The translations under genes and the position numbers were made by a program. A stretch of DNA of 64,000 nucleotides from Candidatus Omnitrophota bacterium. GTDB lineage: Bacteria; Omnitrophota; Gorgyraeia; Zapsychrales; Aceulaceae. Shown piece after piece: positions 5,699 through 26,086 of the stretch. The stretch lies in the NCBI GenBank assembly GCA_029564765.1, contig JAKQPK010000075.1:4603-68602 (forward strand), read 5' to 3'. Positions within the stretch are counted from its first letter, which is position 1. Each line of letters starts with the position of its first letter. Below the pieces are notes generated by a model, which saw only the letters and a list, made by a program, of their open reading frames with translations, had not been told where the DNA came from and searched no databases.

Positions 5699-6159
5699 TG
5701 GGGAATATTCTTATCACTGTGTATGCGCTAAGCACCATCGTCGGATTGGTTGCATGCCTTAAGGCTCATCAGAAGTTTTTAAGGTCTTTTGATTGGGTCA
5801 TTTTGTCGGCGGGAACGCTTATCGGGACGACATGCGTCGTGATTTTAGTATATTTTTGGTTGCGAATGAGCGGTGGCGGAGGAACAATAAGACTTTTTGT
5901 CGGCTTATTCACTTTTGCCTTCGGATGGGCCGTTCCTTTCTTAACATTTAGTTATATTTTAGGTCATGCAGCTAGAAAAAAAGCGATGCAGGAGGGAAGA
6001 CCCTCATTTTTTCCGGTAGTGATAGCTTTTGTTTTGTCAGCCTTGGCAGCGCCAGTGCTGAATGGTATTTTTATGATCGCTGTATCCTTTACCACGCTGC
6101 CCTTATTGCAAATGTTAAGACCGTTCTTAAGGCCACTGGAAAATATTTTATTCAGTTAA
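5698..6159 (+). CDS. Small polytopic membrane protein
   Basis: ATG overlaps the upstream stop (TGATG) with RBS 'aaaggaggga'. About four TM helices. The ORF-track start at 5653 is probably an extension. Confidence 0.5.
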   Translation: MGNILITVYALSTIVGLVACLKAHQKFLRSFDWVILSAGTLIGTTCVVILVYFWLRMSGGGGTIRLFVGLFTFAFGWAVPFLTFSYILGHAARKKAMQEGRPSFFPVVIAFVLSALAAPVLNGIFMIAVSFTTLPLLQMLRPFLRPLENILFS

Positions 6160-6609: not shown

Positions 6610-8703
6610 ATGAAAACGCAAAATCTGTCTGATATTTCCATCCAATATTTAAAAGGTGTCGGCCCTCAGCGCAAAAAGGTGTTTGAGCGCCTAGGTGTTG
6701 AAACCATTGAGGACCTTTTGTATTTCTTCCCTCGACACTATGAAGACCGCCGCCAAATGACGCCGCTGGCGAAACTTAAGGTCGGTGAGTGGCAGACCGT
6801 GACAGGCAAGATCGCAAATCATTCTGGCCGTCGCAGTTGGTATACCAAAAAGCATGTTTACGAAGTGGAGGTTGGCGACGCAACCTCGCGCGTTTTTTGT
6901 GTTTGGTTCAATCGTCCTTATCTAGATCGATATTTTAAGGCAGGTCAGCAGATCGTTGTTTACGGCAAGGTCGATATTTATAAGGATCGCTTTCAGATCG
7001 TTTCTCCGGATTATGAGATCATTGCTGATGATGAAGAGGATCGCGCGCTAAGTGTTGACCGCATTGTTCCCGTCTATCCGATGACGCGAGGCATGACCCA
7101 GCGATCATTGCGTAAAGCTGTCAAGCAGTGCCTTGAAAAGTACGCGTCAAGCCTTCAGGACATCCTGCCGTATGATATTCGCACAAAATATGCGCTGCAC
7201 AATCTTGTAAAAAGCCTCTGGAGTATCCATTTTCCAGACAAGCCAGAAGATCAGGCAGTAGCTTATCGCAGAGTATCATTCGAAGAATTCTTTTTATTCC
7301 AGATCTCTGTATTATTGCGCCGCCAGAGTATCGTGACCAAAGACGGCATCGCCCACGCGATCAGCGATGAATTCTGTCGGGATTTCGAACGCTTATTTTC
7401 TTTTGTGCTTACTCAGTCCCAGAAAGATGTCATCAGGGAAGTTGCTAAAGACCTTAAAAGCAATTCTCCGATGCACCGGCTTTTGCAAGGGGATGTGGGT
7501 TGCGGTAAGACCGTTGTGGCTTTTTTTGGGTGTTTGGCTTCTGTGCGCAATGGCTATCAGGCTGCCATCATGGCGCCTACGGAAATTTTAGCCCGGCAAC
7601 ATTACGAAAATCTTGTAAAGACGATCGCTGGATCGCCGTTTCGCGATATTCGTCCTTGCCTTTTGATCAGTGATCTTGATGTGAAAAGCCGTGCGCAGGC
7701 ACTTGCCGCGATCCAAGAGGGAGCGATCGATATTGTGGTCGGAACGCACGCGCTTATTCAAGATGCGGTCAATTTTAGATCCTTAAGCTTTGTTGTGATC
7801 GATGAACAGCATAAATTTGGGGTGCGCCAGCGCGCCCTTTTGTCCGCTAAAGGCAAAAATCCAGATGTCCTGGTCATGACCGCCACGCCGATTCCCAGAA
7901 CCCTGTGTCTAACGCTTTATGGTGATCTGGATGTGTCAACGATCAGCGAGATCCCTCCAGGACGAGGAAGTTTATGCACGACGTTGTTCGCCCAGCAGGA
8001 TGCCGGGAAAGCGTATGAGATCGTTCGTCAAGCGGTTGCGCGTGGAGAACAGACATATATTGTTTATCCGATCATTGATGAATCTGAAGATCTTGACCTT
8101 AAATCCGCTCAGGAAATGTATAAGACCTTGCAGAAAGGCGAATTGAAGGGTTTTCGGCTTGGCCTTCTGCACGGGCAGATGAAAAAACAGCAGACTCAGG
8201 ATGTCATGCGTCAGTTTTTGAACAAAGAACTTGATGTATTAGTCGCGACAACAGTGTTAGAAGTCGGCGTTGACGTGCCTAATGCCACCGTGATGGTCGT
8301 TGAGCATGCGGATCGCTTTGGCCTGGCTCAGTTACATCAGCTTCGAGGGCGTATTGGCCGAGGAGCGCTAGATGCACAGTGTGTTCTCGTTGCGGATCTG
8401 GCGACTCCCCAGGCCCAGGCGCGCCTAGAGGTCCTTTTGTCAACGCGTGATGGCTTTCAGATCGCCCAACAAGACCTTCTGATCCGCGGCCCTGGAGAAT
8501 TTTTTGGCCGTCATCAGCACGGGCTCAATGAGCTTAGGATCGCTAATCCGCAGACGCAGCTAGATATTCTAGAAGAAGCCCGCCAGGAGGCGATCGGCAT
8601 CTTAGCAAAAGACCCCAAGCTTTCAGACGTCAATCATGCTATAATTCAAAAAACAATTTTGAAGCGGTACCCAAGTTATCTGGGGAATATATTGTCGGGA
8701 TAA
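6610..8703 (+). CDS. recG: ATP-dependent DNA helicase RecG
   Basis: N-terminal 'IQYLKGVGPQRKKVFERLGVETIEDLLYFFPRHYEDRR' wedge region, Walker A 'GDVGCGKT', DEQH box, 'QLHQLRGRIGRG'. Confidence 0.95.
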   Translation: MKTQNLSDISIQYLKGVGPQRKKVFERLGVETIEDLLYFFPRHYEDRRQMTPLAKLKVGEWQTVTGKIANHSGRRSWYTKKHVYEVEVGDATSRVFCVWFNRPYLDRYFKAGQQIVVYGKVDIYKDRFQIVSPDYEIIADDEEDRALSVDRIVPVYPMTRGMTQRSLRKAVKQCLEKYASSLQDILPYDIRTKYALHNLVKSLWSIHFPDKPEDQAVAYRRVSFEEFFLFQISVLLRRQSIVTKDGIAHAISDEFCRDFERLFSFVLTQSQKDVIREVAKDLKSNSPMHRLLQGDVGCGKTVVAFFGCLASVRNGYQAAIMAPTEILARQHYENLVKTIAGSPFRDIRPCLLISDLDVKSRAQALAAIQEGAIDIVVGTHALIQDAVNFRSLSFVVIDEQHKFGVRQRALLSAKGKNPDVLVMTATPIPRTLCLTLYGDLDVSTISEIPPGRGSLCTTLFAQQDAGKAYEIVRQAVARGEQTYIVYPIIDESEDLDLKSAQEMYKTLQKGELKGFRLGLLHGQMKKQQTQDVMRQFLNKELDVLVATTVLEVGVDVPNATVMVVEHADRFGLAQLHQLRGRIGRGALDAQCVLVADLATPQAQARLEVLLSTRDGFQIAQQDLLIRGPGEFFGRHQHGLNELRIANPQTQLDILEEARQEAIGILAKDPKLSDVNHAIIQKTILKRYPSYLGNILSG

Positions 8704-12801: not shown

Positions 12802-13728
12802 ATGATAAATGTGGCATTGATTTTTCCAGGTCAGGGCGCTCAAAAGGTGGGCATGGGAAAGGAGTTGTACGATGCGATCCCAGCGGCCAAAGCTATTTTT
12901 GATTCTGCTCAGGCAACACTCGGCAATGACCTTCTTGATGTTATTTTTAATGGGCCCCAGGAAAAGCTGACACTTACATCCTACTCACAGCCGGCGATCG
13001 TTTCTTGCAGTATCGCAGGATTAAAGGCGCTTCAAGCGCATCCGAAATTTGGCGAGCTGAAGATCGCTTTTACGGCTGGACTTAGCTTGGGGGAATATTC
13101 GGCCTTGATCGCATCTGGAGCGCTCTCTTTTGAGGATGGTATTCGCTTGGTGCAAAAACGCGGCGCTTTTATGGATGAAGCCTGCAAGCTGCAACAAGGT
13201 GCCATGGCGGCCATTATCGGATTTCCTAAGGACAGGCTCAAAGAGATCTGCCGCGAAACCGGAGCGCAAGTCGCTAACTTTAATTCTCCAGAACAGATCG
13301 TCATTACAGGTCATGCTGACAAGGTCCAGGCTGCTGTTTCCGCGATCGAAAAAGAAAATCCAAAGAATATCGTTATGCTTGAAGTGGCCGGAGGATTTCA
13401 TTCAAGCCTGATGAAGTCTGCCGCGGAAAAGTTTTCTGCGGAGCTTTCAAAATTTAATTTGCAGACATTGAGCATCCCCCTCGTTGGCAACGTCAAAGGT
13501 GTGGCCGAAACAGATCCTGAAATCATCCGCCAAAACCTGCCTTTACAGATCACCTCATCTGTTCTCTGGGAAGATTCTGTCCGTTTTATGGCCGCGCAAG
13601 GTGTGAAGTATTTCATTGAGATCGGCCCTGGCAAGATCCTCAAAGGCCTTATTCGTCGTATCGATCCTACGTTAACTGTCTTTAACATTGAGAAGCCGCA
13701 GGATATAGAAACAGTATTTAGCATTTAG
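12802..13728 (+). CDS. fabD: Malonyl-CoA:ACP transacylase
   Basis: 'ALIFPGQGAQKVGMG', active-site 'GLSLGEYSAL'. The ATG at 12802 is chosen over the ORF-track's upstream extension at 12685, which overlaps fabH. Confidence 0.9.
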   Translation: MINVALIFPGQGAQKVGMGKELYDAIPAAKAIFDSAQATLGNDLLDVIFNGPQEKLTLTSYSQPAIVSCSIAGLKALQAHPKFGELKIAFTAGLSLGEYSALIASGALSFEDGIRLVQKRGAFMDEACKLQQGAMAAIIGFPKDRLKEICRETGAQVANFNSPEQIVITGHADKVQAAVSAIEKENPKNIVMLEVAGGFHSSLMKSAAEKFSAELSKFNLQTLSIPLVGNVKGVAETDPEIIRQNLPLQITSSVLWEDSVRFMAAQGVKYFIEIGPGKILKGLIRRIDPTLTVFNIEKPQDIETVFSI

Positions 13729-13877
13729 TCTTTAGTGTTTAGCTTTTGCCGACCTATCGAAATACTGTTTGAAGATACTAGATATTTTTCATTTTTCCCG
13801 CCAAAGATTTTCCATATTTTTAATGAATCACTGATATAAACTATGTATACTAATATATATTTATATATAAGGACGTT

Positions 13878-14312
13878 ATGCCTTGCCTTGGGACCAAAGA
13901 AATAGAAGCGATCCTGCCACAGAAATACCCATTTCTGCTCATTGATAGGGTTTTAGATTACAAAGAAGATGACTATCTTGTTGCTATTAAGAATATCACG
14001 GGTAACGAATGGAGTTCTGTTGACAGCGTCAGCCAGCTTGAATGTTGGCCGGAGATGTTGGCTGTAGAAGGAGCTTTGCAGGCTGCAATTATTTTGTATC
14101 ATAAAAGTAAGAATTTCCCCGGAGAGACTCCGGTATATTTTATTGGAAAAGTTATTTCTGAGTTTTATTGCTTACCTAAAATTGGTGATTCTTTAAATAT
14201 TGTAGTTTCCGCAGAAAAGCTAATGCGCATTGGTGGATATGCGCGTATCGATTTAAAGAATCAAAAAGAAAGAATTTCCAGCATCGAAATCTTTTTTAGC
14301 GTAAAGAGATGA
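13878..14312 (+). CDS. FabZ/FabA-like hotdog-fold 3-hydroxyacyl-ACP dehydratase. First gene of a low-GC coupled module
   Basis: 'LPQKYPFLLIDRVL' matches the FabZ N-terminal signature. 144 aa. Preceded by a ~150-bp AT-rich gap. Its stop overlaps the next start. Confidence 0.7.
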   Translation: MPCLGTKEIEAILPQKYPFLLIDRVLDYKEDDYLVAIKNITGNEWSSVDSVSQLECWPEMLAVEGALQAAIILYHKSKNFPGETPVYFIGKVISEFYCLPKIGDSLNIVVSAEKLMRIGGYARIDLKNQKERISSIEIFFSVKR

Positions 14313-15538
14313 TTAAACAAAAAAAAGACGAACGACGTGTCGTGGTCACAGGCTTAGGCGTTGTTTCGTCTATTGGTATTGGCTGGCAGGAATTCTGGAA
14401 AAACCTTCTCGCTGGAAAATCCGGTATCAGCAAGATCACTTCATTTGACACATCCTCCTACGACCGTCACTATGGCGGTGAAGTCAAAGATTTTAATCCC
14501 TATAAATTTATTGATAAGCGAAAAGCGGACCGTATGGGCCGGGCTTCACAGATGGCTATTGCTAGCTGTAATCTTGCATTATCTGACGCAGATTTCTCTT
14601 TTGCAAGAGTTGGCAGAAGAAAGGTGGGGGTTTTTATCGGTACCACAACAGGAGAAATTGCACGCCTAGAGCAATACTACAAGACTTGGCATAGCACGAA
14701 CAAAAAAATACCAGTTCCTATGAACCTAATTACTTTTCCAACCTATTGCCTAAGCTCACATGTTAGTAGATATTTTCGGCTTTCTGGACCAAGCGTGGTT
14801 TTTTCTAATGCATGCGCTGCCGGGAATTATGCCATTGGTTACGCGTATGATTTGATAAAGAATGGGCGTATTGAACTTGCTATCGCTGGCGGAGTTGATG
14901 GCATTTCAAATATTGTGTTTACTGGCTTTAGTCGTTTATTAGCTATAGCTCCAGAAAAATGTCAACCTTTTGATAAGGATAGAAAAGGGATGATTCCTGG
15001 GGAGGGGTCTGGAATTCTTTTTCTGGAGAATTTAGATAGCGCATTAAAGAGAAAAGCTAGAATCTATGCTGAAATTTATGGATATGGTCTTTCTTGCGAT
15101 GGCCATCATATGACAAGCCCTTCTCCTGACGGAGTAGTTCTTTCAATAAAGAAATGTTTAGATGCTTCAGGAGTCTGTTGCGATGCTGTAGATTATGTCA
15201 GCGCTCATGGGACCGGTACAATAGAGAATGATCGATTGGAATGCCAAGCTATAAAAACTATTTTTGGGGCACGGCGGAGAAAAATTCCCGTATCATCTAT
15301 TAAGTCTATGATTGGTCATTGCATGGGAGCATCTTCTGCGATAGAGGCGATTACATGTTGTCTTGCGATAAAAGATCAAAAGATTCCACCAACAATTGGT
15401 TTTAACGAAAAAGATCCTGATTGTGATATTGATTGCGTTCCAAATAAATCCCGAGAAGCAAAAGTAGGCGTTGTTTTGAACAATTCGCTAGCATTTGGTG
15501 GTAATAACGCTAGCTTGCTATTAGGAAAAAGAAAATGA
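14309..15538 (+). CDS. Beta-ketoacyl-ACP synthase (KAS I/II-like condensing enzyme)
   Basis: Catalytic triad context 'SNACAAGNYAIGYA', 'SAHGTGT', 'GHCMGASS'. 409 aa. Overlaps its neighbours by 4 nt. Confidence 0.8.
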   Translation: MIKQKKDERRVVVTGLGVVSSIGIGWQEFWKNLLAGKSGISKITSFDTSSYDRHYGGEVKDFNPYKFIDKRKADRMGRASQMAIASCNLALSDADFSFARVGRRKVGVFIGTTTGEIARLEQYYKTWHSTNKKIPVPMNLITFPTYCLSSHVSRYFRLSGPSVVFSNACAAGNYAIGYAYDLIKNGRIELAIAGGVDGISNIVFTGFSRLLAIAPEKCQPFDKDRKGMIPGEGSGILFLENLDSALKRKARIYAEIYGYGLSCDGHHMTSPSPDGVVLSIKKCLDASGVCCDAVDYVSAHGTGTIENDRLECQAIKTIFGARRRKIPVSSIKSMIGHCMGASSAIEAITCCLAIKDQKIPPTIGFNEKDPDCDIDCVPNKSREAKVGVVLNNSLAFGGNNASLLLGKRK

Positions 15539-16950
15539 ATGATGAAAGATATCAGGTAATCATTATTGGGGCTGGAATTGGTGGCCTAGTTTCTGGATGT
15601 CTTCTTGCGCTTGCAAAGAAGAAGGTTTTAATTGTCGAAAAGAATGATGTTCCAGGAGGATACTGCACATCGTTTAAGCAATTTGGTCTGCATTTCGATA
15701 CTTGTGCCCATTCATTGGGAGATTTATCGAAGCAAGGCAAGTTGTTTGCGATACTAAATAAGATTGGAGTCTTAGAAAAGGTAAAGAGAGTCCGGTACGA
15801 TCCAGGAGACATCATTGTCACAGAAGATTTTGAAGTGTGTTTTAATAATTCTTTGGATAAGACAATAAGAAATCTTTCAAGCATTTTTCCAAAAGAAAAA
15901 GAAGCAATTTCTGCATTCTTTAAGAATATTGTATGTCGACAAGATTTTGTTCAGGCAATGCAGCTTCATAAACAAACTTTTAGCATGCTTCTTGATGATT
16001 ATTTTGTTGATTTGCGACTTAAGAAAATTTTAGGTCTTTTTCCGCTTGGAAATCTCGGAACTCCGGCAAACCACGTCTCAGCGTTTATTGCCGTGAAACA
16101 TTTCAAGCAATTCATTGTTGATGGAGGTTATTATTTATCTAGGGGGATGGATGATTTACCAAGAGCTTTGATGCGGCGCTTCACAGCTCTTGGCGGAAAG
16201 CTTAGCTTTGGATCAGAGGTTGCCTCGGTGAAATGCAGAAATAATACAGCTGTAGGGATTATTTTACGAAATGGTCGTGAATTTTCTGCAGATTTTATTA
16301 TTTCTGCTTGCGACCTAAAGAGTGTTTTCATGAGAATGTTAACTGATTTGAAAACAAGGAAGCGTGCAAAAAATATTATTCGAGAAATGCAGCCATCCCT
16401 TTCTTTATTTGTTGCGCATGTTGTATTGAAAAAGAAGCTATGCAATTCTTATTCTCCTGGGACAAATGTCTGGCGTCTTCGTAATTATGAATATGATCGA
16501 GTGCATAAACGGCAAATTAATTATTCTGATATGTCTGTAGGGTGGATAATGCTTAGAATTGGTATCAGAAAAAAGACTGTAACGCTATTTACGAACGCTC
16601 CTTATCGGGGTAGTTCGTTTTGGAGGAGGAATAGGGTTGATTTCTTTAGCAGAATCCTAAAATTAGCCTCAGATGTAGTCCCTGGAATAGATAACAATGT
16701 AAAATCAGTTCAGCTTTTAACTCCTTTTGGGCTAAACAAGATGACTGGAAATTATAATGGTGCAGGATATGGATGGGCCAGCACTCCGAATCAGTCTTTT
16801 GTAGCTGACCTCTTAAGCGACGGAGTCGCTAAGAACCTTTTTTTATCTGGTCATTGGGGTTCAGTTGCCCAGGGAATCCCTGGAGTGGCTATTGCAGGAG
16901 AGCGTGTTTCAAGAATAATTTTAGCTAGAATGAAAAATGTCAAGATCTAA
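15535..16950 (+). CDS. FAD/NAD(P)-dependent oxidoreductase of the phytoene-desaturase/amine-oxidase (CrtI-like) family
   Basis: Rossmann motif 'VIIIGAGIGGLVSGCLLA...VLIVEKNDVPGG'. About 470 aa, typical CrtI/RetSat-family length. Confidence 0.7.
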   Translation: MNDERYQVIIIGAGIGGLVSGCLLALAKKKVLIVEKNDVPGGYCTSFKQFGLHFDTCAHSLGDLSKQGKLFAILNKIGVLEKVKRVRYDPGDIIVTEDFEVCFNNSLDKTIRNLSSIFPKEKEAISAFFKNIVCRQDFVQAMQLHKQTFSMLLDDYFVDLRLKKILGLFPLGNLGTPANHVSAFIAVKHFKQFIVDGGYYLSRGMDDLPRALMRRFTALGGKLSFGSEVASVKCRNNTAVGIILRNGREFSADFIISACDLKSVFMRMLTDLKTRKRAKNIIREMQPSLSLFVAHVVLKKKLCNSYSPGTNVWRLRNYEYDRVHKRQINYSDMSVGWIMLRIGIRKKTVTLFTNAPYRGSSFWRRNRVDFFSRILKLASDVVPGIDNNVKSVQLLTPFGLNKMTGNYNGAGYGWASTPNQSFVADLLSDGVAKNLFLSGHWGSVAQGIPGVAIAGERVSRIILARMKNVKI

Positions 16951-18235
16951 TAATCGAAAAAAAGTTGTGGTAACTGGCTTAGGACCAATTACATCAGTTG
17001 GAATTGGAGCTGATGCATTATGGCAATCGCTTTTTGAGGGAAAAACGGACATTGTTGAACATAAGCATATTTTGTCAGGGGAGCTAATTGATACCTTTCC
17101 TTTGCATATGATTCAATCGTTTAATCTCGATGATTTTAAGATTCCTGAGAATGGGCTGAAATCTATACGAGACTGGAAAAAAGACGCTATAGATAGAGAG
17201 TTGAGTCTTTTTCTTGCTTCAATTAAGGTTGCTCTTGACGATAGCAAAATAAAAAATTCTTATCGTAAGGATATCGGTTTTGTTTTTACTCAAGAAATGC
17301 CAGGGGTAGAAGATTTTTTTGAAAAGGTCATCATAAAGACAATTAATTTTAGTCGTACAGGTAAAAAAATGACACACAAAAATGTTAGCGAATACTTGTA
17401 TGAAGCATGCGAGGCCCAGGGATACGATCTCCAGACTTTTATGTATATATATTTTGCCCTAAAGTGTTTTGGTTGCCACGGATATTCTTTATTTATCAAC
17501 AATGCATGTGCATCAGGATCCTATGCGATTGAAGAAGCTGCTCGGATTATTCGTTCTGGCCATCAGAAAATTATAATTGTTTCCGGGGGAGACTCTCCGA
17601 TAAAATCTTTTAAATATAATTGGTTTAAAAAGCGTGGCCTGTACTCTAGCGATGGTCTTGTAAGACCATTTTGTCGTAACTCTAATGGAATTGTTTTTGG
17701 TGAAGGCGTTTCATCTCTGGTATTGGAAGATTTTGATCATGCAAAAAAGCGTGAAGCTAAGATTTACGCGGAATATCTTGGAGGGGGTTTTTCACAGGAA
17801 GCATGGAAGGTGACATTGCCAAATATCACCGAGAATTTCTATTTGTCAGCCTTTCAGAAAGGACTTAAGGAGTCGAAAGTTGATATTTCGGAAATCGATT
17901 TTGTTAATGCCCATGGGGTAGGCATTAAAATTACTGACAATTATGAGGCTCGTACGATTAAGAAAGTTTTTAGCAGGTTAAAGAATAAGCCTTTAGTTAC
18001 CGCGTTTAAACCTTACATTGGTCATAATTTAGGTGGGAGCAGCTTGATCGAGAGCGTGATATCTATACTTTGTTTAAAAAACAATTGTATTCTGCCAACT
18101 TTAAATACGGAAGATTATGATGAAAATCTTGGGATAAATCTTGCAAGAGAGAAAGTTGAGAAAGATTTACGCATTTTTGCAAAGATGTCGTGTGGTTTTG
18201 CTGGGTTTAATTCGGTTATTTTCTTTAGAAAGTAA
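16937..18235 (+). CDS. Second beta-ketoacyl-ACP synthase-like protein (divergent KAS)
   Basis: 'NNACASGSYAIEEAARII' (Cys retained), 'NAHGVG', 'GHNLGGSS'. Overlaps the upstream gene by 14 nt. Confidence 0.7.
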   Translation: MSRSNNRKKVVVTGLGPITSVGIGADALWQSLFEGKTDIVEHKHILSGELIDTFPLHMIQSFNLDDFKIPENGLKSIRDWKKDAIDRELSLFLASIKVALDDSKIKNSYRKDIGFVFTQEMPGVEDFFEKVIIKTINFSRTGKKMTHKNVSEYLYEACEAQGYDLQTFMYIYFALKCFGCHGYSLFINNACASGSYAIEEAARIIRSGHQKIIIVSGGDSPIKSFKYNWFKKRGLYSSDGLVRPFCRNSNGIVFGEGVSSLVLEDFDHAKKREAKIYAEYLGGGFSQEAWKVTLPNITENFYLSAFQKGLKESKVDISEIDFVNAHGVGIKITDNYEARTIKKVFSRLKNKPLVTAFKPYIGHNLGGSSLIESVISILCLKNNCILPTLNTEDYDENLGINLAREKVEKDLRIFAKMSCGFAGFNSVIFFRK

Positions 18236-18241
18236 TTATCC

Positions 18242-20434
18242 ATGGCTCAATCATTTAGTTTATTGCGAATACTTTTTATCTTATCTGGCCTTACGCTGTC
18301 CCTAACCTGTTTCGCGCTTCTTTTTATAATTTTAAAATTTGGAAGAACCAAATTAACAAAAGTTTGGGCTTGTTTTAATTTATCAGTCTTTGTTTGGGGA
18401 TTAGGTGTTTCGATGATTGGGTTTGCGAAAAATGATAGCGAAGCTTGGTTAGCTTGGAAGATTGGTCATGCGGGAGCGATTTTTATTGCTGGAACGTTCT
18501 TTCACGTCGTCAGCGTCCTGACTGATAAGGGGTTGCGGCGCTTTATCGCAGTTGTTTATAGCTATTCTTGTGTTTTCTTGCTTTTGAATATCCTAGATCA
18601 ACTTAATATCAGTATCATTGAAAAATTTGATGGAATATATTTTATATTTCCAGAAAACTTTTTGTACCCATTCTTAATTACAGCTTGGGTGGTAATCGTT
18701 TTATTTGCATTCATTATTTTAATACAATCTTTGCGGACTGTCAGCCAAAGATTATACAATCAGCTTCGGTATTTTCTGATTGGGACGACAGTCGGATTTC
18801 TTGGCGGTCTTAGCAATTTTCTCCCAATGTTTAATGTAAACATTTATCCTTTAGGAAATTTTTTGATATCATTTTATTGTTGTTTCTGCAGCTATGCAAT
18901 CTTGAGGCATCGCCTTATGGATGTCAGCATTGCGATAACTCGGACGGGGATTTTTGTTTTAGTCTATTCGCTCGTTCTTGGCATCCCTTTTGCCATCGCT
19001 TTCGGACTGAAAGATTATTTATTTTCTATTCTTGGAAATATTTGGTGGATTATTCCTTTATTTGCCTCAACCATGCTGGGCACTGCTGGGCCATATCTTT
19101 ATTTCTTTATCCAGCGCAAGGCAGAAGAAAAGTTATTAGCCGACCAAAAGCGCTACCAATCGACCTTAAAGCAAGCGTCGGCAGGCATGACGCGTATCAA
19201 GGACCTAAAAAAGCTTTTAAATTTGATCGTCTATATTCTCTCTAGAACGGTTAATCTAACGCATGCATCTCTGTATCTCTACAATCCAAAAAGTCGTGAC
19301 TATACCCTTGAGGCTGTGAGAGGCGAGAAGCTTTCGAAGAAGAATTATTACATTAGCCGTCGCTGTGCGTTGATTGATTATCTGGAAAAAGCAAAGCTGC
19401 CTATCGTAGCTGAAGAGATCAAGCAGCAAAGTCAAGATTACAACAATGAAAACTTGAAAGAAGTCTACGCGCAGCTTAAGGAAATTGGCGCGGAAGTTGC
19501 TGTTCCGATCCTTACGGAAAAGCGCTTGTTGGCAATAGGTGTTCTCGGTAAAAAAAATACAGGATCGATGTATACACCGGATGACTTGACAGTTTTCTCA
19601 ATTCTGGCAAGCCAGGTCGCGCTTGCTATCGAAAACGCTCAGTTCTACGAAGAGTCCAAACAGACCCAGGAACAACTTTTCCAGGCGGAAAAAATGGCGA
19701 CGATCGGCACGATGGCTGACGGCCTGTCACATCAGATCAATAATCGTCTACATACGCTTGGCTTTATTGCCGGAGACGCTTTGGACACCATCAACCTGAG
19801 CAAGGATGTTCAGGATCCTTCAAGGTTCCAGTCGATCTTGGCCGAAATATCCAAAGCACTTGTAAAGATCCAGGAAAATGTCCGTCAAGGCGGCGAGATC
19901 GTTCAAGGATTATTGCGCTATACGCGAAAAGGCCAGGAAGGCTTTGGGGAGGTGGTCTTTGACAAGCTTGTCGATGAAGTTGTTGAGATGGCGCAATTCA
20001 AGATCAAAAAAGAATATGTGGCGATCGTTAAGGACTATCCTCAAGATCTGCCTGGGATCCATGGGAATTTTACGCAGCTGCAAGAAGTCTTTTTTAATAT
20101 CATTGATAACGCGTATGACGCGATCATGCAAAAGAAACATGAGATCGCGGATGAAAATTTTAGCGGCAAGATCAAGATCTCAACTCGCCAGACCGAGAAA
20201 TTTTTGGAGGTCAATGTTCTCGATAACGGCATGGGCGTTAAAGAAGATGACCAGACAAAGCTCTTTACACCATTTTTCACGACAAAAGTGTCAAGTCGTA
20301 AAGGTACGGGATTGGGGCTTTATGTGATCAAGAAGATCGTTGAAGACAACCATCAGGGAGAAGTCTTCATTTCCTCCGAACATAAAGTAGGGACATTGTT
20401 CATTGTCAGGCTACCGATAGGAAAGAAGGGATAA
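18242..20434 (+). CDS. Sensor histidine kinase with a polytopic (7TM-type) N-terminal sensor, a GAF-like region, and HisKA/HATPase
   Basis: About seven N-terminal TM helices. H-box 'DGLSHQINNRLHTL', N-box 'FFNIIDNAYDA', G-box 'GTGLGLYVIKKIV'. Confidence 0.8.
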   Translation: MAQSFSLLRILFILSGLTLSLTCFALLFIILKFGRTKLTKVWACFNLSVFVWGLGVSMIGFAKNDSEAWLAWKIGHAGAIFIAGTFFHVVSVLTDKGLRRFIAVVYSYSCVFLLLNILDQLNISIIEKFDGIYFIFPENFLYPFLITAWVVIVLFAFIILIQSLRTVSQRLYNQLRYFLIGTTVGFLGGLSNFLPMFNVNIYPLGNFLISFYCCFCSYAILRHRLMDVSIAITRTGIFVLVYSLVLGIPFAIAFGLKDYLFSILGNIWWIIPLFASTMLGTAGPYLYFFIQRKAEEKLLADQKRYQSTLKQASAGMTRIKDLKKLLNLIVYILSRTVNLTHASLYLYNPKSRDYTLEAVRGEKLSKKNYYISRRCALIDYLEKAKLPIVAEEIKQQSQDYNNENLKEVYAQLKEIGAEVAVPILTEKRLLAIGVLGKKNTGSMYTPDDLTVFSILASQVALAIENAQFYEESKQTQEQLFQAEKMATIGTMADGLSHQINNRLHTLGFIAGDALDTINLSKDVQDPSRFQSILAEISKALVKIQENVRQGGEIVQGLLRYTRKGQEGFGEVVFDKLVDEVVEMAQFKIKKEYVAIVKDYPQDLPGIHGNFTQLQEVFFNIIDNAYDAIMQKKHEIADENFSGKIKISTRQTEKFLEVNVLDNGMGVKEDDQTKLFTPFFTTKVSSRKGTGLGLYVIKKIVEDNHQGEVFISSEHKVGTLFIVRLPIGKKG

Positions 20435-20459: not shown

Positions 20460-20852
20460 GTGATTGAAAAAAGAAAATTGAAAACATATAAAGATCTTAT
20501 TGCTTGGCAGAAGTCTTACAGTTTGTGCTTAGAAATATATCGGGCAACGAAGATATTCCCGCAATCTGAACAATATGGCCTGACCGCACAAATGAAGCGA
20601 AGCGCCCTTTCCGTTCCGTCAAATATTGCTGAAGGGTATGTGCGGCACGGAACGCGAGACTATATTCGTTTTCTTTATATCGCTTACGCTTCGCTTGCAG
20701 AACTAGAAACACAATTGCTTCTTGCAAAAGATTTGGGATATATTAAATCTGATGACTTTAAGCAGATCATTGGTCTGCAAAACGAGGTTCAGAGGGTTAT
20801 GCGCGGGCTAATCGAGTCGCTTAAATCAAGATCTTCACAAAATGCCCTGTAA
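20460..20852 (+). CDS. Four-helix-bundle protein (23S rRNA intervening-sequence protein family)
   Basis: 'YKDLIAWQKSYSLCLEIYRATKIFPQSEQYGLTAQMKRSALSVPSNIAEGY' is the canonical family signature. Flanked by the 11-bp IR 'agggataaagg'/'cctttatccct'. Confidence 0.85.
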   Translation: MIEKRKLKTYKDLIAWQKSYSLCLEIYRATKIFPQSEQYGLTAQMKRSALSVPSNIAEGYVRHGTRDYIRFLYIAYASLAELETQLLLAKDLGYIKSDDFKQIIGLQNEVQRVMRGLIESLKSRSSQNAL

Positions 20853-20899: not shown

Positions 20900-21259
20900 A
20901 TGCCAAAACTACTTATTGTTGATGATGAAACGGATATCACGGAGTTCGCGAAGCATTTCTTCGAGAAGCGGGGGATCGAGGTAATTACAGCTTCAGGAGG
21001 TCAGGAAGCACTGGATCTGATAAGCTTAAGCAATCCTGATCTCACGCTTTTGGATGTGCGCATGGGAGAGGTTACAGGTGTTGATGTCTTGCGTAAACTT
21101 CGCGAATCAGGTAATATGATGAAAGTTGTCATGGTAACTGGCGTAGAGGATCCCGCTATTATTAAGCAAGCACAAGATCTGGGCATAAGCGGTTTTATAC
21201 ATAAACCCTTAGCCTTGGATGAATTAGAGCGGGTTGTGATGAAGGAATTAGAAGGATAA
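20900..21259 (+). CDS. Stand-alone response-regulator receiver (CheY-like)
   Basis: 'LLIVDDE...D', 'LLDVRMGEVTGVDVL', 'VVMVTG'. 119 aa. Confidence 0.85.
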   Translation: MPKLLIVDDETDITEFAKHFFEKRGIEVITASGGQEALDLISLSNPDLTLLDVRMGEVTGVDVLRKLRESGNMMKVVMVTGVEDPAIIKQAQDLGISGFIHKPLALDELERVVMKELEG

Positions 21260-21333: not shown

Positions 21334-22539
21334 ATGTCACTCAATTACAAAAAAGAACTCGAACGTGCAAGCCGTGTTATGATCCGGATCCATGATCCGA
21401 GCATCTTGATACGTTTGATCATTCGCTTGATCGTGCGCAAGGTTGACGTTAAGCACGCTGGCGTTTTGTTGTTTGACGCTAACCGCGATTGCTACGTTCT
21501 TACTCTCTCAGGCGGGGAGAGCGGGACCCGTATCCCGCAGGGGTTCGCGAAATTTGTTAAAGAAAACCCATTGATCAAATTCTTCGTTGATAAAGAATAT
21601 CAATCGCTTATAAGGCGCCATGGGGCTTTGACCATCGAAGAACTTAACCGCATGATCTGGAGCGAAAATGTCTTGCCGCAGAATGAACAGCATAAAGATT
21701 TCTTGCACAAGATCGCTCAGCAGATGGAGATGTTCAATGTAGCGGTCTGTATCCCAGCGTATTTTCGTGAGCATCTTGTAGCGCTTTTGCTTCTTGGCGA
21801 AAAGACAAACGGACATGTTTATCAGCAGGAAGAGTTTGATTTTCTAGCGGCGCTGTCTTCGGATGTTGCCATGGCCATTCAGAACGCGCGGCTTATTGAG
21901 GATTTGCGCAAAGAAGTTGAGAAGAATAAAGCGCTTTTTATCAACACCGCTCTTTCACTTGCTTCGGCCATAGAGGCTAAAGACCGTTACACACGTGGCC
22001 ATACAGAGCGTGTTACAAAATACGCGTTAGCGATTGCCGATGAGCTTGTACACAACCGCGCCTTTCCTCTTTCGAAAAATTTCTCTGAGGATCTGTACAT
22101 TGCGTCTTTGTTGCATGATGTAGGGAAAATAGGCGTTCCTGAGAGCATCTTGAGCAAAGAAACAGGCCTTACGGACCAGGAATTCCAGCAGATACGTCTA
22201 CATCCGCTAAGAGGAGCCGATATTTTAAAAGCTATTCCGGAATTTGAAGAGTGCCTTAAGGGTGTTAAATATCACCACGAGCGCTATGATGGCCGAGGCT
22301 ATCCGGAGGGCTTAAAAGGCGAAGAGATCCCGCTCGTTGCTGCCATTGTCGCTGTCGCGGATAGCTATGACGCGATGACCTCTGATCGAACTTACCGCAA
22401 AGCCATGTCCAAGGACGCTGCTATAAGCGAGATCGAGAAAAATATAGGTATTCAATTTCATCCGGTGGTGGCAAAGGCGTTTTTGGAGGTGTTGAGGAAA
22501 AGCGAAAAAGAGTTAATAAAAGTTACAAATGGTTACTAG
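21334..22539 (+). CDS. HD-GYP domain phosphodiesterase with N-terminal GAF-like region
   Basis: 'HTERVTKYALAIADEL', 'HDVGKIGVPESIL', 'HHERYDGRGYPEGLKGEEIP'. Confidence 0.85.
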   Translation: MSLNYKKELERASRVMIRIHDPSILIRLIIRLIVRKVDVKHAGVLLFDANRDCYVLTLSGGESGTRIPQGFAKFVKENPLIKFFVDKEYQSLIRRHGALTIEELNRMIWSENVLPQNEQHKDFLHKIAQQMEMFNVAVCIPAYFREHLVALLLLGEKTNGHVYQQEEFDFLAALSSDVAMAIQNARLIEDLRKEVEKNKALFINTALSLASAIEAKDRYTRGHTERVTKYALAIADELVHNRAFPLSKNFSEDLYIASLLHDVGKIGVPESILSKETGLTDQEFQQIRLHPLRGADILKAIPEFEECLKGVKYHHERYDGRGYPEGLKGEEIPLVAAIVAVADSYDAMTSDRTYRKAMSKDAAISEIEKNIGIQFHPVVAKAFLEVLRKSEKELIKVTNGY

Positions 22540-22661: not shown

Positions 22662-22934
22662 TTACGGGATCAGGTTATCTTCAAGGCAATCATCCATATC
22701 GCCTCCTAGTTCTTCCAGCGAACCTCTGCTGATTTTGATGGAATGTGCGAATTCACCAACGCTATCTTTTGCATAGCCCTCGCGGATATTCTGCTTTGCG
22801 CTTCTGGCCGCATCGCATATTTGACTTACCAGTCGCAGTCGCGACTTTTGGAAGGCCCCTGTCATTTTATTGATAAGACGCCTGATCTCGCAAACATTCT
22901 TGTAAAATTCCAGATTTTCGTAGGCTCGACCCAT
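22662..22934 (-). CDS. Four-helix-bundle protein (IVS-protein family), short member. The start is uncertain because the ORF extends to 23018 and overlaps the kinase gene's end
   Basis: 'NIREGYAKDSVGEFAHSIKISRGSLEELGGDMD' family-type C-terminal half. Confidence 0.6.
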   Translation of the reverse strand: MGRAYENLEFYKNVCEIRRLINKMTGAFQKSRLRLVSQICDAARSAKQNIREGYAKDSVGEFAHSIKISRGSLEELGGDMDDCLEDNLIP

Positions 22935-22983
22935 AAGGCAACCTTTAGTAACCAATAGTAACTTATCATAACCTTTTAGTAAC

Positions 22984-24600
22984 TCATCTTTTCTTCTTCT
23001 TTCCCGGCAATTCCACAATAAACTTTGTCCCTACTCCCGGCTTGCTTTCCACTAAAATCTTCCCACCATGATCTTTGATGATGCGTTGGGTGATTGAAAG
23101 ACCCAGACCGACACCATGGTCTTTTTTGGTGTAGAAGGGGTCAAAGACGTTTTTTAGGTCTTTTTTAGCGATCCCTGTTCCTGTGTCTTCGATAGATAAC
23201 CGCACATGATCGTTAACTCTATCTACGCTCACTGATAATCTGCCGCCTCTATTCATCGCGTCGATCGCGTTAATAAATATATTCAAGAACGCTTGGCGTA
23301 ATCGGTTTGCATCGGCCGTAAGGCGTATGTTCGCAGAGGGGCTGTAGTTTTGATCGACCGTGATGCTGTGCTTGATAAATTTGCTGCTTAGAAATGCCAG
23401 GGTGTTATCAATGAGGCTTGCCAGATCAACCTCTTTAAGCTGAAGAGGGGATGGCTTAGCAAATTCAAGCAGTTCATGCACCAGGTTATCAATACGTTCC
23501 ACTTCGTGTCCGACAATGCGGGAGAAATTACTCAAGAATTCCTTATCATTCATTTTGCGCGGGAGATATTCTGCAAAGGTTTTGATCGCAGTAAGAGGAT
23601 TTTTGATCTCATGAGCGATGCCGCTTGCAAGAATGCTTATGGATTTTAGCTTTTCAGTCTGCTCGACCTCTTGTTTAAGTCGTTCATTCTCTTTCATGAT
23701 CTCTTCGTGCGTGCCGTGGAAGAATATTCTGTCTATTATTAGATTAATGAAGTTTCGCAGGGGAAAAAATATGATTCCGATAACAAATGATATAGAAACG
23801 CTAAGAATTAAAGATTTGTATCCAACGATCCCCTTGAGAAAGTTTTCGAACAGGATGATGGCAAGAAAGTAGAGAAATGAAATTATAGTTATTAAGACCG
23901 AGTAGACAATACTCTTCTTAATTACAATATTTATATCGAGGAAATGATATTTAAATATGATGTGAGTTATTATAAAAGGTGGTACTAAAATTGCAAAATT
24001 TCCATATGGGTAAATATTTATTCCATACCCCGGTAGAAAATCAAGAGTTCCTCCAGCGAAACCAATGCACGATAGAATCAATCCGAGAATCTGGCTTTTT
24101 TGTTCAACATAAACATTTTTCCAGTATTTGATTAGCAAAAAGTATCCAGCCGAGACAACAGTGAGCCAAGTGATAAACGATAAAGTGTAGTAAGCGCTCC
24201 CTTGATGATAATAGAAAGAATTAAACATAAATTTTGTTGTTGGAAACATTTTATTGTTAACTATGGTGTAGAGAAAATAAAAAGCTTGTCCGTAAATTGC
24301 TATTAGGAGAATTTTTCTTTCTTTTTTAATGAGAATTAAGACTGAATGAAGAAAGAAGACTGCAATAAAGAGTGCTGACGGATAAGCAATTTTCCATATT
24401 GTGAAGGAAAAATTCTGGCTTGTATTAATCCCAATAAAAAAGGATCCAATGCCCCACATGGCGATTGAAAGAATGTGGAAGGAGTAGACAATCGAAAGCT
24501 TTGATTTATTATTGATTAAGATTAGGATGAAAAGAGGAAAATATGCAAACGCAATCAATAATCCTGATATCGCAAAAGGATTTAAGCGGGAAAGGTCCAT
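22984..24600 (-). CDS. Sensor histidine kinase with a 7TM-type N-terminal membrane sensor
   Basis: About seven TM helices, coiled coil, H-box 'SGIAHEIKNPLTAI', 'GVGLGLSITQRII'. N-terminal domain architecture resembles that of the kinase at 18242. Confidence 0.8.
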   Translation of the reverse strand: MDLSRLNPFAISGLLIAFAYFPLFILILINNKSKLSIVYSFHILSIAMWGIGSFFIGINTSQNFSFTIWKIAYPSALFIAVFFLHSVLILIKKERKILLIAIYGQAFYFLYTIVNNKMFPTTKFMFNSFYYHQGSAYYTLSFITWLTVVSAGYFLLIKYWKNVYVEQKSQILGLILSCIGFAGGTLDFLPGYGINIYPYGNFAILVPPFIITHIIFKYHFLDINIVIKKSIVYSVLITIISFLYFLAIILFENFLKGIVGYKSLILSVSISFVIGIIFFPLRNFINLIIDRIFFHGTHEEIMKENERLKQEVEQTEKLKSISILASGIAHEIKNPLTAIKTFAEYLPRKMNDKEFLSNFSRIVGHEVERIDNLVHELLEFAKPSPLQLKEVDLASLIDNTLAFLSSKFIKHSITVDQNYSPSANIRLTADANRLRQAFLNIFINAIDAMNRGGRLSVSVDRVNDHVRLSIEDTGTGIAKKDLKNVFDPFYTKKDHGVGLGLSITQRIIKDHGGKILVESKPGVGTKFIVELPGKKKKR

Positions 24601-25717: not shown

Positions 25718-26086
25718 TTAATCAACAAGGTTAAGTTTTTTGATAAGGTTACGAATCATCTTAGATTCAAACTGAATTTTCTCAATCAAGCGAGTTTTAA
25801 ACTGGTTTTCGATATATTTTAAGTCATAACAAATTTCAAGTTGCGTTTCAAGCTCGGAGCAGGACCCAAGCGCGTGAAAAAGGAATTGTCGATATTCTTT
25901 ATTATGATAACGGCTAAATCCTTCTGCAATATTTGAAGGTATTGAGATTGCGGATCTGCGCATTTGAGAAACAAGAGAAAAGAGTTCTTCTTTTGGAAAT
26001 ATTTTTGTTCTTTCGTATATTTCTAAGACAATATCCTTCCCCAGGCTCCAGATTTTTAGTTCCCTAAAGCTTTTTATCTTATCCAT
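25718..26086 (-). CDS. Four-helix-bundle protein (IVS-protein family)
   Basis: 'IKSFRELKIWSLGKDIVLEIYERTKIFPKEELFSLVSQMRRSAISIPSNIAEGFSR'. Flanked by the perfect 15-bp IR 'gtatttagtatctag'/'ctagatactaaatac'. Confidence 0.85.
   Translation of the reverse strand: MDKIKSFRELKIWSLGKDIVLEIYERTKIFPKEELFSLVSQMRRSAISIPSNIAEGFSRYHNKEYRQFLFHALGSCSELETQLEICYDLKYIENQFKTRLIEKIQFESKMIRNLIKKLNLVD

Follow-up and report, generated by a model that had tools for sequence, protein, structure and literature searches.

A reduced ladderane-Cluster-I-like enzyme set and the membrane half of a histidine kinase form a swappable cassette in an Omnitrophota genome

The closest described relative of the locus reported here is Cluster I of the anammox bacterium Kuenenia. 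Genes kuste3603–3608 encode the acyl carrier protein amxACP, the hotdog dehydratase amxFabZ, the ketosynthase amxFabF2, the chain-length factor (CLF) amxFabF-mut, a phytoene-dehydrogenase homologue and a B12 radical-SAM enzyme. The tunnel of amxFabZ, described with structure 8AYD, has an Ile that replaces Gly (PMC10139942). Both amxFabZ and amxFabF-het prefer C6–C8 chains (PMC10139942; bioRxiv 10.64898/2026.05.19.726425). Cluster I has been described as exclusive to ladderane producers (PMC10139942). We analysed a homologous gene set in 64,000 nucleotides of a Candidatus Omnitrophota bacterium (GenBank assembly GCA_029564765.1, contig JAKQPK010000075.1, positions 4,603 to 68,602 of the forward strand), which as a whole is called the window here. 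Behind fabD, four genes encode a hotdog protein, a ketosynthase (KAS-A), a CrtI-like flavoenzyme and a second ketosynthase (KAS-B), and a histidine kinase gene follows them. The unit is a reduced Cluster-I-like enzyme set which, joined to the membrane half of the kinase, makes up a swappable specificity cassette.

Linked synthesis and sensing are known from other loci. In comQXPA and agrBDCA the signal genes are co-transcribed with a kinase that has a polytopic membrane domain, and the biosynthesis and sensor parts are hypervariable where the kinase core and the response regulator are conserved. The agr locus is a signal–receptor specificity locus, and the variable part of both ComP and AgrC is the N-terminal one. 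DSF (diffusible signal factor) signalling ends in the HD-GYP regulator RpfG. Pherotype polymorphism has been described for ComQXPA (PMC4408185). In the lipid autoinducer pairs CqsA/CqsS (CAI-1), LqsA/LqsS, PhcB/PhcS and RpfF/RpfC/RpfG (DSF) a lipid is read by a membrane kinase. CqsS recognises a C8–C13 fatty-acid-derived signal in its transmembrane domain, and single residues set the chain-length specificity (PMC3285556). In the literature searched, no paper was found that connects a histidine kinase with ladderane-type clusters and a phytoene-desaturase homologue.

The operon yceD-rpmF-plsX-fabH-fabD lies upstream of the four-gene module and ends at 13728. An earlier reading, made from the sequence alone (the sequence-only reading), had placed four overlapping and translationally coupled genes after fabD and an AT-rich gap of about 150 bp. 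The gap measures 149 nt, the junctions overlap by 4, 4 and 14 nt, and all four open reading frames (ORFs) are intact, their products matching NCBI HOD12118–HOD12121 exactly. The kinase gene (18242–20434; domains HisKA_7TM, GAF, DHp and HATPase) starts 6 nt further on. By position in the window, the features are:

12802..13728 (+): fabD, malonyl-CoA:ACP transacylase (ACP, acyl carrier protein); TIGR00128, 315 bits against a cutoff of 261
13729..13877 (+): intergenic gap between fabD and the module, 149 nt, AT-rich, 26.8% G+C
13878..14312 (+): amxFabZ-like hotdog protein, 144 residues; Pfam FabA/FabZ-like, FabA 28 bits
14309..15538 (+): KAS-A, amxFabF2/Iga11-type ketosynthase, 409 residues; ketoacyl-synt N and C domains
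14563..18949 (+): hypervariable low-GC cassette, 37.8% G+C, nucleotide similarity to the sister genomes slight or absent
15535..16950 (+): CrtI/CrtD-fold FAD-dependent oxidoreductase of the kuste3607 "PDH" family, 471 residues; Amino_oxidase PF01593, NAD_binding_8 PF13450
16937..18235 (+): KAS-B, divergent ketosynthase, 432 residues; ketoacyl-synt N and C domains
18242..18946 (+): seven-transmembrane (7TM) sensor domain of the kinase, HisKA_7TM, residues 1–235; Pfam PF16927
18947..20434 (+): cytoplasmic part of the kinase with linker, GAF, DHp and HATPase; Pfam GAF_2, HATPase_c
20900..21259 (+): CheY-like single-domain response regulator; Pfam Response_reg
21334..22539 (+): GAF(weak)-HD-GYP protein; Pfam HD_5, HD, weak GAF_2

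Two sister lineages, L169/L170 from Logan runs and L171/L172 from JGI samples, share the chromosomal frame of the window. The frame is recG-rsmD-coaD-yceD-rpmF-plsX-fabH-fabD, then the cassette, the kinase, the response regulator, the HD-GYP gene and a second kinase. Amino-acid identities to the window, in percent, are given for L169 and then for L171/L172:

PlsX: 99; 94
FabH: 98; 92
FabD: 90; 83
Hotdog (dehydratase-like) protein: 56; 83
KAS-A: 63; 60
CrtI-like flavoenzyme: 27; 31
KAS-B: absent in L169; 39
Kinase, whole protein: 74; 74
Response regulator: 96; 94
HD-GYP protein: 92; 92

FabD is the conserved left flank, and no gene of the cassette diverges more than that of the flavoenzyme. Across the three kinase alleles, identity in the 7TM domain is 31–36% (31–35% to the window), and the remainder of the protein matches the sisters at 82–87% in the linker, 94–95% in GAF, 94–97% in DHp and 90–94% in HATPase. 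The identity profile of KAS-A is likewise stepped, the first 60 or so residues being 98–100% identical to the sisters and the following ones 15–50%. In blastn alignments the left breakpoint is at 14562 and the right one at 18794 (L171/L172) or 18950 (L169), with patchy matches of 66–70% remaining to about 15722 and with flanks that match the sisters at 80–94%. Similarity is lost from about codon 85 of KAS-A to about codon 185–236 of the kinase, and the breakpoints lie inside these two genes. Each of the three alleles is stable across independent samples. The enzymes and the sensor domain have been replaced as one block, and the kinase core and the output proteins are conserved. Such joint replacement over a constant core and output is the signature of signal–receptor specificity loci.

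The three sister flavoenzymes are not mutual closest relatives. The window allele, which has the flavoenzyme, KAS-B and the kinase, is nearest to L088, where the same three occur in the order kinase, flavoenzyme, KAS-B, kinase. The L169 allele has no KAS-B, and a thioester reductase (NAD_binding_4) sits between its KAS-A and flavoenzyme; it is nearest to L149 and L008, both reductase-bearing. The allele classes thus track the accessory chemistry predicted from their genes. What has moved is an allele at a shared site, not a foreign fatty-acid module. The alleles come from sister taxa, with flanks at 80–94% nucleotide identity. In JGI sample 3300013126 the assembly breaks at fabD, contig L174 ending and L171 starting inside this gene at the left edge of the cassette, and the break hints at strain-level heterogeneity at the cassette site.

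The sequence-only reading had noted the low G+C content of the four genes and had taken it as consistent with horizontal acquisition. Their G+C content is indeed 38.4%, against 48.9% for plsX–fabD and 44.0% for the whole window, and their G+C at third codon positions (GC3) is 0.31–0.36, where the mean of the window is 0.455 (sd 0.075, 51 ORFs). The low-GC stretch does not end with KAS-B at 18235, but extends about 700 nt into the kinase gene, whose 7TM segment (18242–18946) has 36.2% as against 43.9% for the remainder. A lone and recent foreign island was rejected, since sister Omnitrophota carry a cassette at the identical site, and the same genes, together with those for kinase, response regulator and HD-GYP protein, recur at a different site in the more distant L005. 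Low GC3 of the module recurs in L005, L009, L011 and L046 (0.26 in L046, with flanks at 0.37–0.45). It is therefore a persistent property of the flavoenzyme and module genes, found in at least four other lineages, and alone it is no evidence of recent transfer. It could stem from alleles being exchanged often, from weak expression or from another cause.

The mosaic pattern was also followed through 47 loci with complete gene pairs, the pairs being non-independent. Among non-identical pairs whose kinase cores are 90–98% identical, flavoenzymes are 27–57% and 7TM domains 30–56% identical, with one intermediate pair at 89% and 73%. The Nitrospirota-type loci L104 and L146 share 98% identity in FabG, 92% in the CLF, 94% in both dehydratase and ketosynthase, 89% in ACP and 89% in the kinase core, with 61% in the CrtI-like enzyme and 50% in the 7TM domain. 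L133 and L152 are 97% identical in the dehydratase, 86% in the ketosynthase and 90% in the kinase core, and 52% in both the flavoenzyme and the 7TM domain. These mosaics show that divergence peaks at the junction of flavoenzyme and sensor domain in several lineages. Across the 47 loci, the Spearman correlation of CrtI-like identity is 0.74 with 7TM identity and 0.55 with kinase-core identity.

Hypervariable enzymes and sensors between sisters fit a ligand–receptor pair better than membrane homeostasis. We propose, with a probability of roughly 0.45, that the four enzymes make a small unsaturated lipid as ligand for the membrane domain of the kinase, with the response regulator and the HD-GYP protein as output. 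Two traits of specificity loci are present. Biosynthetic genes and a membrane receptor kinase are adjacent, separated by 6 nt, and a hypervariable block of synthase and sensor is combined with a conserved core and regulator, both in the Omnitrophota sisters and in several Nitrospirota-type pairs. The outputs are a CheY-like regulator and an HD-GYP protein, with no DNA-binding regulator adjacent, and this also supports the proposal.

In the proposed pathway, KAS-A would take malonyl-ACP, which the adjacent FabD likely supplies, along with an ACP encoded elsewhere. KAS-A, the His-less hotdog protein and KAS-B would build a short or medium acyl chain. The flavoenzyme would then set its unsaturation pattern by desaturation, isomerisation or saturation, so that this step would determine the identity of the ligand. 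The kinase, made from the same transcript, would read the product with its seven-helix membrane domain and pass the signal to the CheY-like regulator and the HD-GYP protein, which may act on cyclic di-GMP (c-di-GMP). The observations behind this scheme are genetic. From them we infer all of its chemical steps, including that the product is the kinase ligand, the size, chemistry and diffusibility of that ligand, and the output through c-di-GMP.

Homologues of the flavoenzyme are abundant in metagenomes, and at least 522 relatives with 30–43% identity are among the 600 pattern matches listed. We compared the neighbourhoods of 93 related loci from Nitrospirota, Omnitrophota, Planctomycetia and Elusimicrobia. 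The canonical order is methyltransferase, FabG, CLF-like ketosynthase, amxFabZ-like dehydratase, KAS-A-type ketosynthase, ACP, flavoenzyme and histidine kinase. Where at least 5.5 kb of upstream sequence is available (27 loci), KAS-A occurs in all 27, ACP and the CLF-like protein in 25 each, the dehydratase in 23, the methyltransferase in 19 and FabG in 15. Some relatives add a thioester reductase (NAD_binding_4), a nitroreductase or KAS-B. In the CLF-like proteins of the relatives both catalytic His residues are lost, as in amxFabF-mut, and the Cys motif is altered. The window holds a reduced variant that has no CLF, ACP, ketoreductase or methyltransferase and has KAS-B as an extra gene.

The kinase had been thought possibly co-regulated with the module because of its closeness, and the relatives bear this out. 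Downstream sequence was sufficient to score the next gene in 82 loci. A multi-pass membrane histidine kinase directly follows the flavoenzyme in 76 of them, and in 3 more one gene lies between, as in the window, which makes the association near-universal (79/82). After dereplication it holds for 72 of 74 clusters at 90% identity and for 57 of 59 at 70%. The kinase belongs to the module unit.

The presence of the Cluster I core in Nitrospirota, Omnitrophota, Planctomycetia and Elusimicrobia loci shows that it is not exclusive to ladderane producers. Among solved proteins, KAS-A scores best with amxFabF2 (9s5h_B, 428 bits), and its catalytic triad is intact. By its molecule names and aligned sequence, 9s5h is taken to be the anammox amxFabF2/amxFabF-mut heterodimer of bioRxiv 10.64898/2026.05.19.726425. 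The hotdog protein is nearest to amxFabZ and has the tunnel Ile, the flavoenzyme shares the motif PGGYCTSF with kuste3607, and relatives in other phyla carry a CLF and a divergent ACP. Unlike Cluster I, the window has no ACP, CLF or radical-SAM gene, its hotdog protein has lost the catalytic His, and it has an additional ketosynthase, KAS-B, predicted to be of the active type. Signalling genes (7TM histidine kinase, response regulator, HD-GYP) are joined to its cluster, so that a kinase and not a radical-SAM gene follows KAS-B, and the host is an omnitrophote and not an anammox planctomycete.

These differences bear on bulk synthesis of ladderanes or polyunsaturated lipids, as proposed for the homologous anammox cluster. 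The homology to amxFabZ, amxFabF2 and kuste3607 speaks for such a role. So may the antiSMASH 'ladderane' calls that have been reported, without explanation, in Omnitrophota and other non-anammox phyla (bioRxiv 10.1101/2022.12.20.521206), if they concern the present family. Against it, the window has no CLF and no dedicated ACP, and Pfam gave no Radical_SAM match in the cassette or the flanking ORFs scanned. No experiment has so far linked Cluster I to ladderanes (PMC10139942), and kuste3607 fails to complement CrtI in vivo (PMC4790861). We regard ladderane synthesis at this locus as highly improbable. The sequence-only reading had hinted at an oxygen-independent route to unsaturated or ladderane-like lipids. 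The hint is right in that the nearest solved relatives are amxFabF2 (9s5h_B) and amxFabZ (8AYD), but there is no sign of a bulk anaerobic route to unsaturated or polyunsaturated fatty acids or to ladderanes, given the missing radical-SAM gene and the hypervariable enzymes and sensor.

Two mutually related loci, L162 and L167, carry a convergent PLD-like gene (cardiolipin synthase/phospholipase D family) at 7093–8256 (−) and 4570–5733 (−), respectively, in place of the kinase. It is followed by an M17 aminopeptidase gene and then by a Zn-dependent phospholipase C-like gene, and a membrane-lipid link is possible in that lineage. These neighbours are among the evidence for regulated remodelling of membrane lipids, in which a FabX- or UfaD-like flavoenzyme and a FabB-like ketosynthase would change double bonds without O2 and a DesK-like 7TM kinase would sense the membrane state. 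The module directly follows plsX-fabH-fabD, the sensor is embedded in the membrane, lipid-type methyltransferases are frequent in the relatives, the Kuenenia homologues are well expressed, and CrtI-family enzymes that act on acyl chains exist, such as the desaturase UfaD (PMC7380195). Remodelling would not lead one to expect about 70% divergence of enzymes and sensor where PlsX and FabH are 92–99% identical. No DNA-binding regulator is adjacent, the clusters have no acyltransferase, the amx homologues prefer C6–C8 chains, and the thioester reductase of some alleles would release an aldehyde or alcohol and not hand a chain to phospholipid. We therefore consider remodelling unlikely. The C6–C8 preference together with a reductive release enzyme in some alleles is easier to reconcile with a small lipid that is released than with an acyl chain of the membrane, in line with the proposed ligand–receptor pair.

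A minimal locus, L087 (Elusimicrobia, GCA_026388075.1), has the flavoenzyme, the kinase and methyltransferases, and no ketosynthase. At L087 1676–6181, two small methyltransferases and a second amine-oxidase-family protein of 406 residues precede the flavoenzyme/kinase pair, and this oxidase outscores the window flavoenzyme against most family members. Some Omnitrophota are host-dependent. Such a locus, the phylum of the host and the co-variation of enzyme and sensor domain would also suit a pair of sensor and enzymes for exogenous hydrophobic compounds, in which the kinase detects an environmental or host lipid, the enzymes transform it, and each allele serves one compound. The commonest architecture is, on the other side, a full biosynthetic set of methyltransferase, ketoreductase, CLF, dehydratase, ketosynthase and ACP, and the ketosynthases retain the decarboxylative Cys-His-His triad. 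Use of an outside compound thus seems improbable, and synthesis of the ligand by the module is preferred.

The two ketosynthases called from the sequence were both confirmed by profile search, with their domains and triads intact. In KAS-A the Cys-His-His triad lies in ACAAGNYA, AHGTGT and GHCMGA, and in KAS-B in NNACASGSYA, AHGVG and IGHNLGG. KAS-A is about 38% and KAS-B 28% identical to E. coli FabF. After 9s5h_B, KAS-A matches Iga11 (6kxd) at 354 bits, and canonical FabFs reach at most 308. The fabF equivalog model TIGR03150 has a cutoff of 493.75, which neither KAS-A (415.8) nor KAS-B (217.1) attains, and the looser KAS II subfamily model NF005589 accepts KAS-A (401 against 387). KAS-B was also considered as a CLF and rejected because its triad is intact; the true CLF-like genes of the relatives are a different family. 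Orthologues of KAS-B are found in L046, L088, L096, L171 and other loci.

The hotdog protein had been called a dehydratase. It has a FabA/FabZ-like hotdog domain, and its best match among PDB sequences is 8AYD, the K. stuttgartiensis amxFabZ, but it has Ser50 where FabZ has the catalytic His. In the alignment Glu64 and the amx-type tunnel residue Ile71 are retained, so that of the three residues typical of amxFabZ-type dehydratases (His, Glu and tunnel Ile) the His is missing. The NCBIfam FabZ model for the housekeeping equivalog gives 62.1 bits against a cutoff of 113. The His is also absent in the sister alleles, 83% (L171) and 56% (L169) identical, and in L005; the other relatives examined all retain GHFP, and ApeP/ApeI-like Pfam matches occur on hotdog proteins of the relatives. 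The H48N variant of amxFabZ retains activity on short chains, reduced about 100-fold (PMC10139942). A weak dehydratase activity, a role as binding subunit or some other function is therefore conceivable for the hotdog protein of the window.

The absence of ACP, ketoreductase and enoyl reductase genes noted in the sequence-only reading holds for the entire window. With E. coli AcpP, FabG and FabI as queries, tblastn gave no match anywhere in the 64 kb, and the only further ketosynthase it found was KAS-B. Pfam found no other fatty-acid synthesis gene on the larger ORFs of the window, and acpP, fabG and fabF, looked for just past the module, were not found anywhere in the window by tblastn and Pfam. 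Could the genes still be a diverged housekeeping type II fatty-acid synthase, with KAS-A as FabF, the hotdog protein as FabZ and the CrtI-like protein as an unusual enoyl-ACP reductase (a saturase)? They occupy the position of fabG-acpP-fabF, no other FabF or FabZ exists in 64 kb, KAS-A exceeds the NF005589 cutoff, and in L009–L011 the order is FabG-ACP-ketosynthase and then flavoenzyme. The scores below the fabF and FabZ (62 against 113) equivalog cutoffs, the missing FabZ His, and the scores of KAS-A, higher with amxFabF2 and the polyene ketosynthase Iga11 than with any FabF, all argue otherwise. Essential enzymes would not have diverged to 27–63% identity where FabH is 92–98% identical, and Kuenenia has a homologous cluster plus a separate canonical fab operon. 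A housekeeping role is accordingly improbable, which upholds the earlier view that the module does not serve ordinary saturated fatty-acid synthesis.

The flavoenzyme, first read as a phytoene-desaturase-family FAD enzyme, is placed there by both Pfam and fold. Its AlphaFold2 (AF2) model (pLDDT 86.8) has CrtD (4rep) as top Foldseek match with a TM score of 0.80, and the profile match to CrtI (4dgk) is full-length (E = 1e-37). In the FAD-binding GxGxxG motif G12, G14 and G17 are invariant. A pseudogene or frameshift was excluded, the ORF being intact, by identical copies of the protein on 11 contigs from independent assemblies and by the confident AF2 model. Neither of the findings that would have overturned the sequence-only reading, a broken CrtI-like gene or a diverged paralogue set of normal composition next to the true acpP-fabG-fabF genes, holds. 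With the 128-residue N-terminal fragment of kuste3607 it shares 36.5% identity over 104 aligned residues, the common motif extending to PGGYCTSFK. The enzyme resembles CrtI, CrtD, CRTISO and UfaD in its FAD Rossmann domain and Amino_oxidase fold. Unlike carotenoid enzymes, it scores 102.9 bits with crtI_fam (TIGR02734; cutoff 238.1) and far below the cutoff of every NCBIfam carotenoid model, and Pfam gave no carotenoid genes among the ORFs scanned in the window.

The 7TM domain of the kinase is modelled by AF2 as a multi-helix bundle (pLDDT 91). Foldseek gave weak, generic matches to GPCR bundles (TM score 0.4–0.5), which are no evidence of homology. Downstream of the kinase come a small four-helix-bundle gene, the CheY-like regulator and the HD-GYP protein. 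The regulator, which is found in synteny in L005, L169 and L171 and shares 94–96% identity with its counterparts in the sisters, is probably the phosphoacceptor of the kinase. The HD-GYP protein is probably the output, a putative c-di-GMP phosphodiesterase. Pfam found no DNA-binding regulator on the neighbouring ORFs. A second histidine kinase (weak HisKA_7TM, HisKA, HATPase) is encoded at 22984–24600 (−), 450 nt past the HD-GYP gene. Its N-terminal membrane domain has 32.6% G+C as against 43.5%, and is about 25–65% identical to the sisters where its core is about 60–92% identical. A kinase of this type stands directly upstream of the flavoenzyme in L088, and it is therefore a possible second receptor of the same system.

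Compared with comQXPA and agrBDCA, the locus agrees in its arrangement and differs in its chemistry. The signals of those systems are peptides (ComX is also isoprenylated), and the window enzymes are a flavoenzyme and proteins like those of fatty-acid and polyketide synthesis, so that a lipid ligand would be expected. The output proteins encoded here are of the CheY-like and HD-GYP types, with no DNA-binding regulator, and the alleles come from sister taxa. To the lipid autoinducer pairs the proposed reading of a lipid by a membrane kinase is the likeness. The window has none of their synthases, that is, no CqsA (dependent on pyridoxal phosphate), crotonase RpfF or methyltransferase PhcB. Its HD-GYP output is the sole Rpf-like feature, and Pfam found no enoyl-CoA hydratase domain in the locus. 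The sensing domains of CqsS are more than 70% identical between Vibrio species (PMC3285556), as against 31–36% here. Highly reducing type II polyketide synthases (ishigamide Iga11/Iga12 and aryl polyene) are similar in that KAS-A scores higher with Iga11 than with any FabF, and the relatives encode a CLF-like partner, ketoreductase, dehydratase, ACP and methyltransferase without an enoyl reductase; the window differs in having no CLF, ketoreductase or ACP. Neither a CrtI-like enzyme nor a sensor kinase is known to be part of ishigamide or aryl polyene clusters.

Several points weigh against the proposed lipid ligand and its receptor. No member of the family has a known product. The window cassette has no ACP, thioesterase or obvious release or export step, and its hotdog protein has no catalytic His. 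The three alleles are from sister species and not from one demonstrated population, so that 'pherotype' is used by analogy. The Spearman correlations rest on non-independent pairs. Sensor domains of kinases often outpace kinase cores in evolution, and hydrophobic membrane domains are naturally T-rich, which accounts for part of the low G+C content. L162 and L167, the sole exceptions with enough sequence, have no kinase. The homologous cluster of Kuenenia is expressed at levels like those of housekeeping fab genes (supplementary file 8).

A wider reading is more doubtful than the one for the window. Omnitrophota, Nitrospirota, Planctomycetia and Elusimicrobia may possess a widespread, undescribed class of lipid cell–cell signalling, in which the flavoenzyme would write a short unsaturated lipid, the 7TM kinase would read it, and both would co-diversify into private specificity groups. 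Anammox Cluster I would then be a derived branch in which the kinase was exchanged for a radical-SAM enzyme. We put this forward tentatively, as a view that is rather unlikely to hold in full.

Other observations concern the surroundings of the cassette. The gap 13729..13877 is possibly a promoter region. A scan for promoters and terminators gave 27 sites against 24.8 expected, with nothing above shuffled controls and no terminator in the gap. The mechanical fabD ORF begins at TTG 12685 and shares about 100 nt with fabH. The true start is likely ATG 12802, because three independent gene calls use it (a 308-residue protein). Genes for four-helix-bundle proteins annotated as '23S rRNA intervening sequence' (PF05635, bAvd-like) occur at 20460–20852 (+), 22662–23018 (−) and 25718–26086 (−), and L169 has one at 4246–4614, inserted between fabH and fabD. 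Their occurrence differs among the sister genomes, the copy behind the kinase is 37–52% identical, and they behave like small mobile insertions. A diversity-generating retroelement was considered and rejected: the score with the Avd model is 25.6 (cutoff 80), no reverse transcriptase was found among the ORFs scanned with Pfam, and such elements do not replace 4 kb. Anti-phage defence, raised by the hypervariable low-GC block, was set aside after PADLOC gave generic domain matches only.

Further along the window, a protein of 2619 residues at 29713–37572 (+) is of the Tc-toxin/polymorphic-toxin type (SpvB, TcdB_toxin_midN, FG-GAP, RHS-repeat); its gene follows the signalling genes at a distance of some 7 kb and is also present on the sister contig L171. 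An IS200-like Y1 transposase gene at 38114–38641 (+) is followed at 38767–39324 (+) by an ORF with a GC3 of 0.205 and no Pfam match. A fusion protein of 1067 residues at 44591–47794 (+) combines a membrane region like that of the major facilitator superfamily, a spermidine-synthase domain and tetratricopeptide repeats.

If the proposed ligand and receptor are borne out, the locus would offer a first way to study how phyla of which few members or none are cultured communicate chemically, or at least sense particular ligands. The chemistry, that of enzymes like those of fatty-acid and polyketide synthesis with a CrtI-like flavoenzyme, would be one that no known quorum-sensing system uses. Three alleles occur naturally at this one site and would serve as a ready-made system for specificity swaps. 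The Cluster I core is common outside ladderane producers, where the radical-SAM enzyme is invariably missing and a sensor kinase nearly always present, which narrows the candidates for ladderane-specific genes. The non-anammox homologues, in turn, offer material for finding the product of the ketosynthase, hotdog protein and flavoenzyme set.

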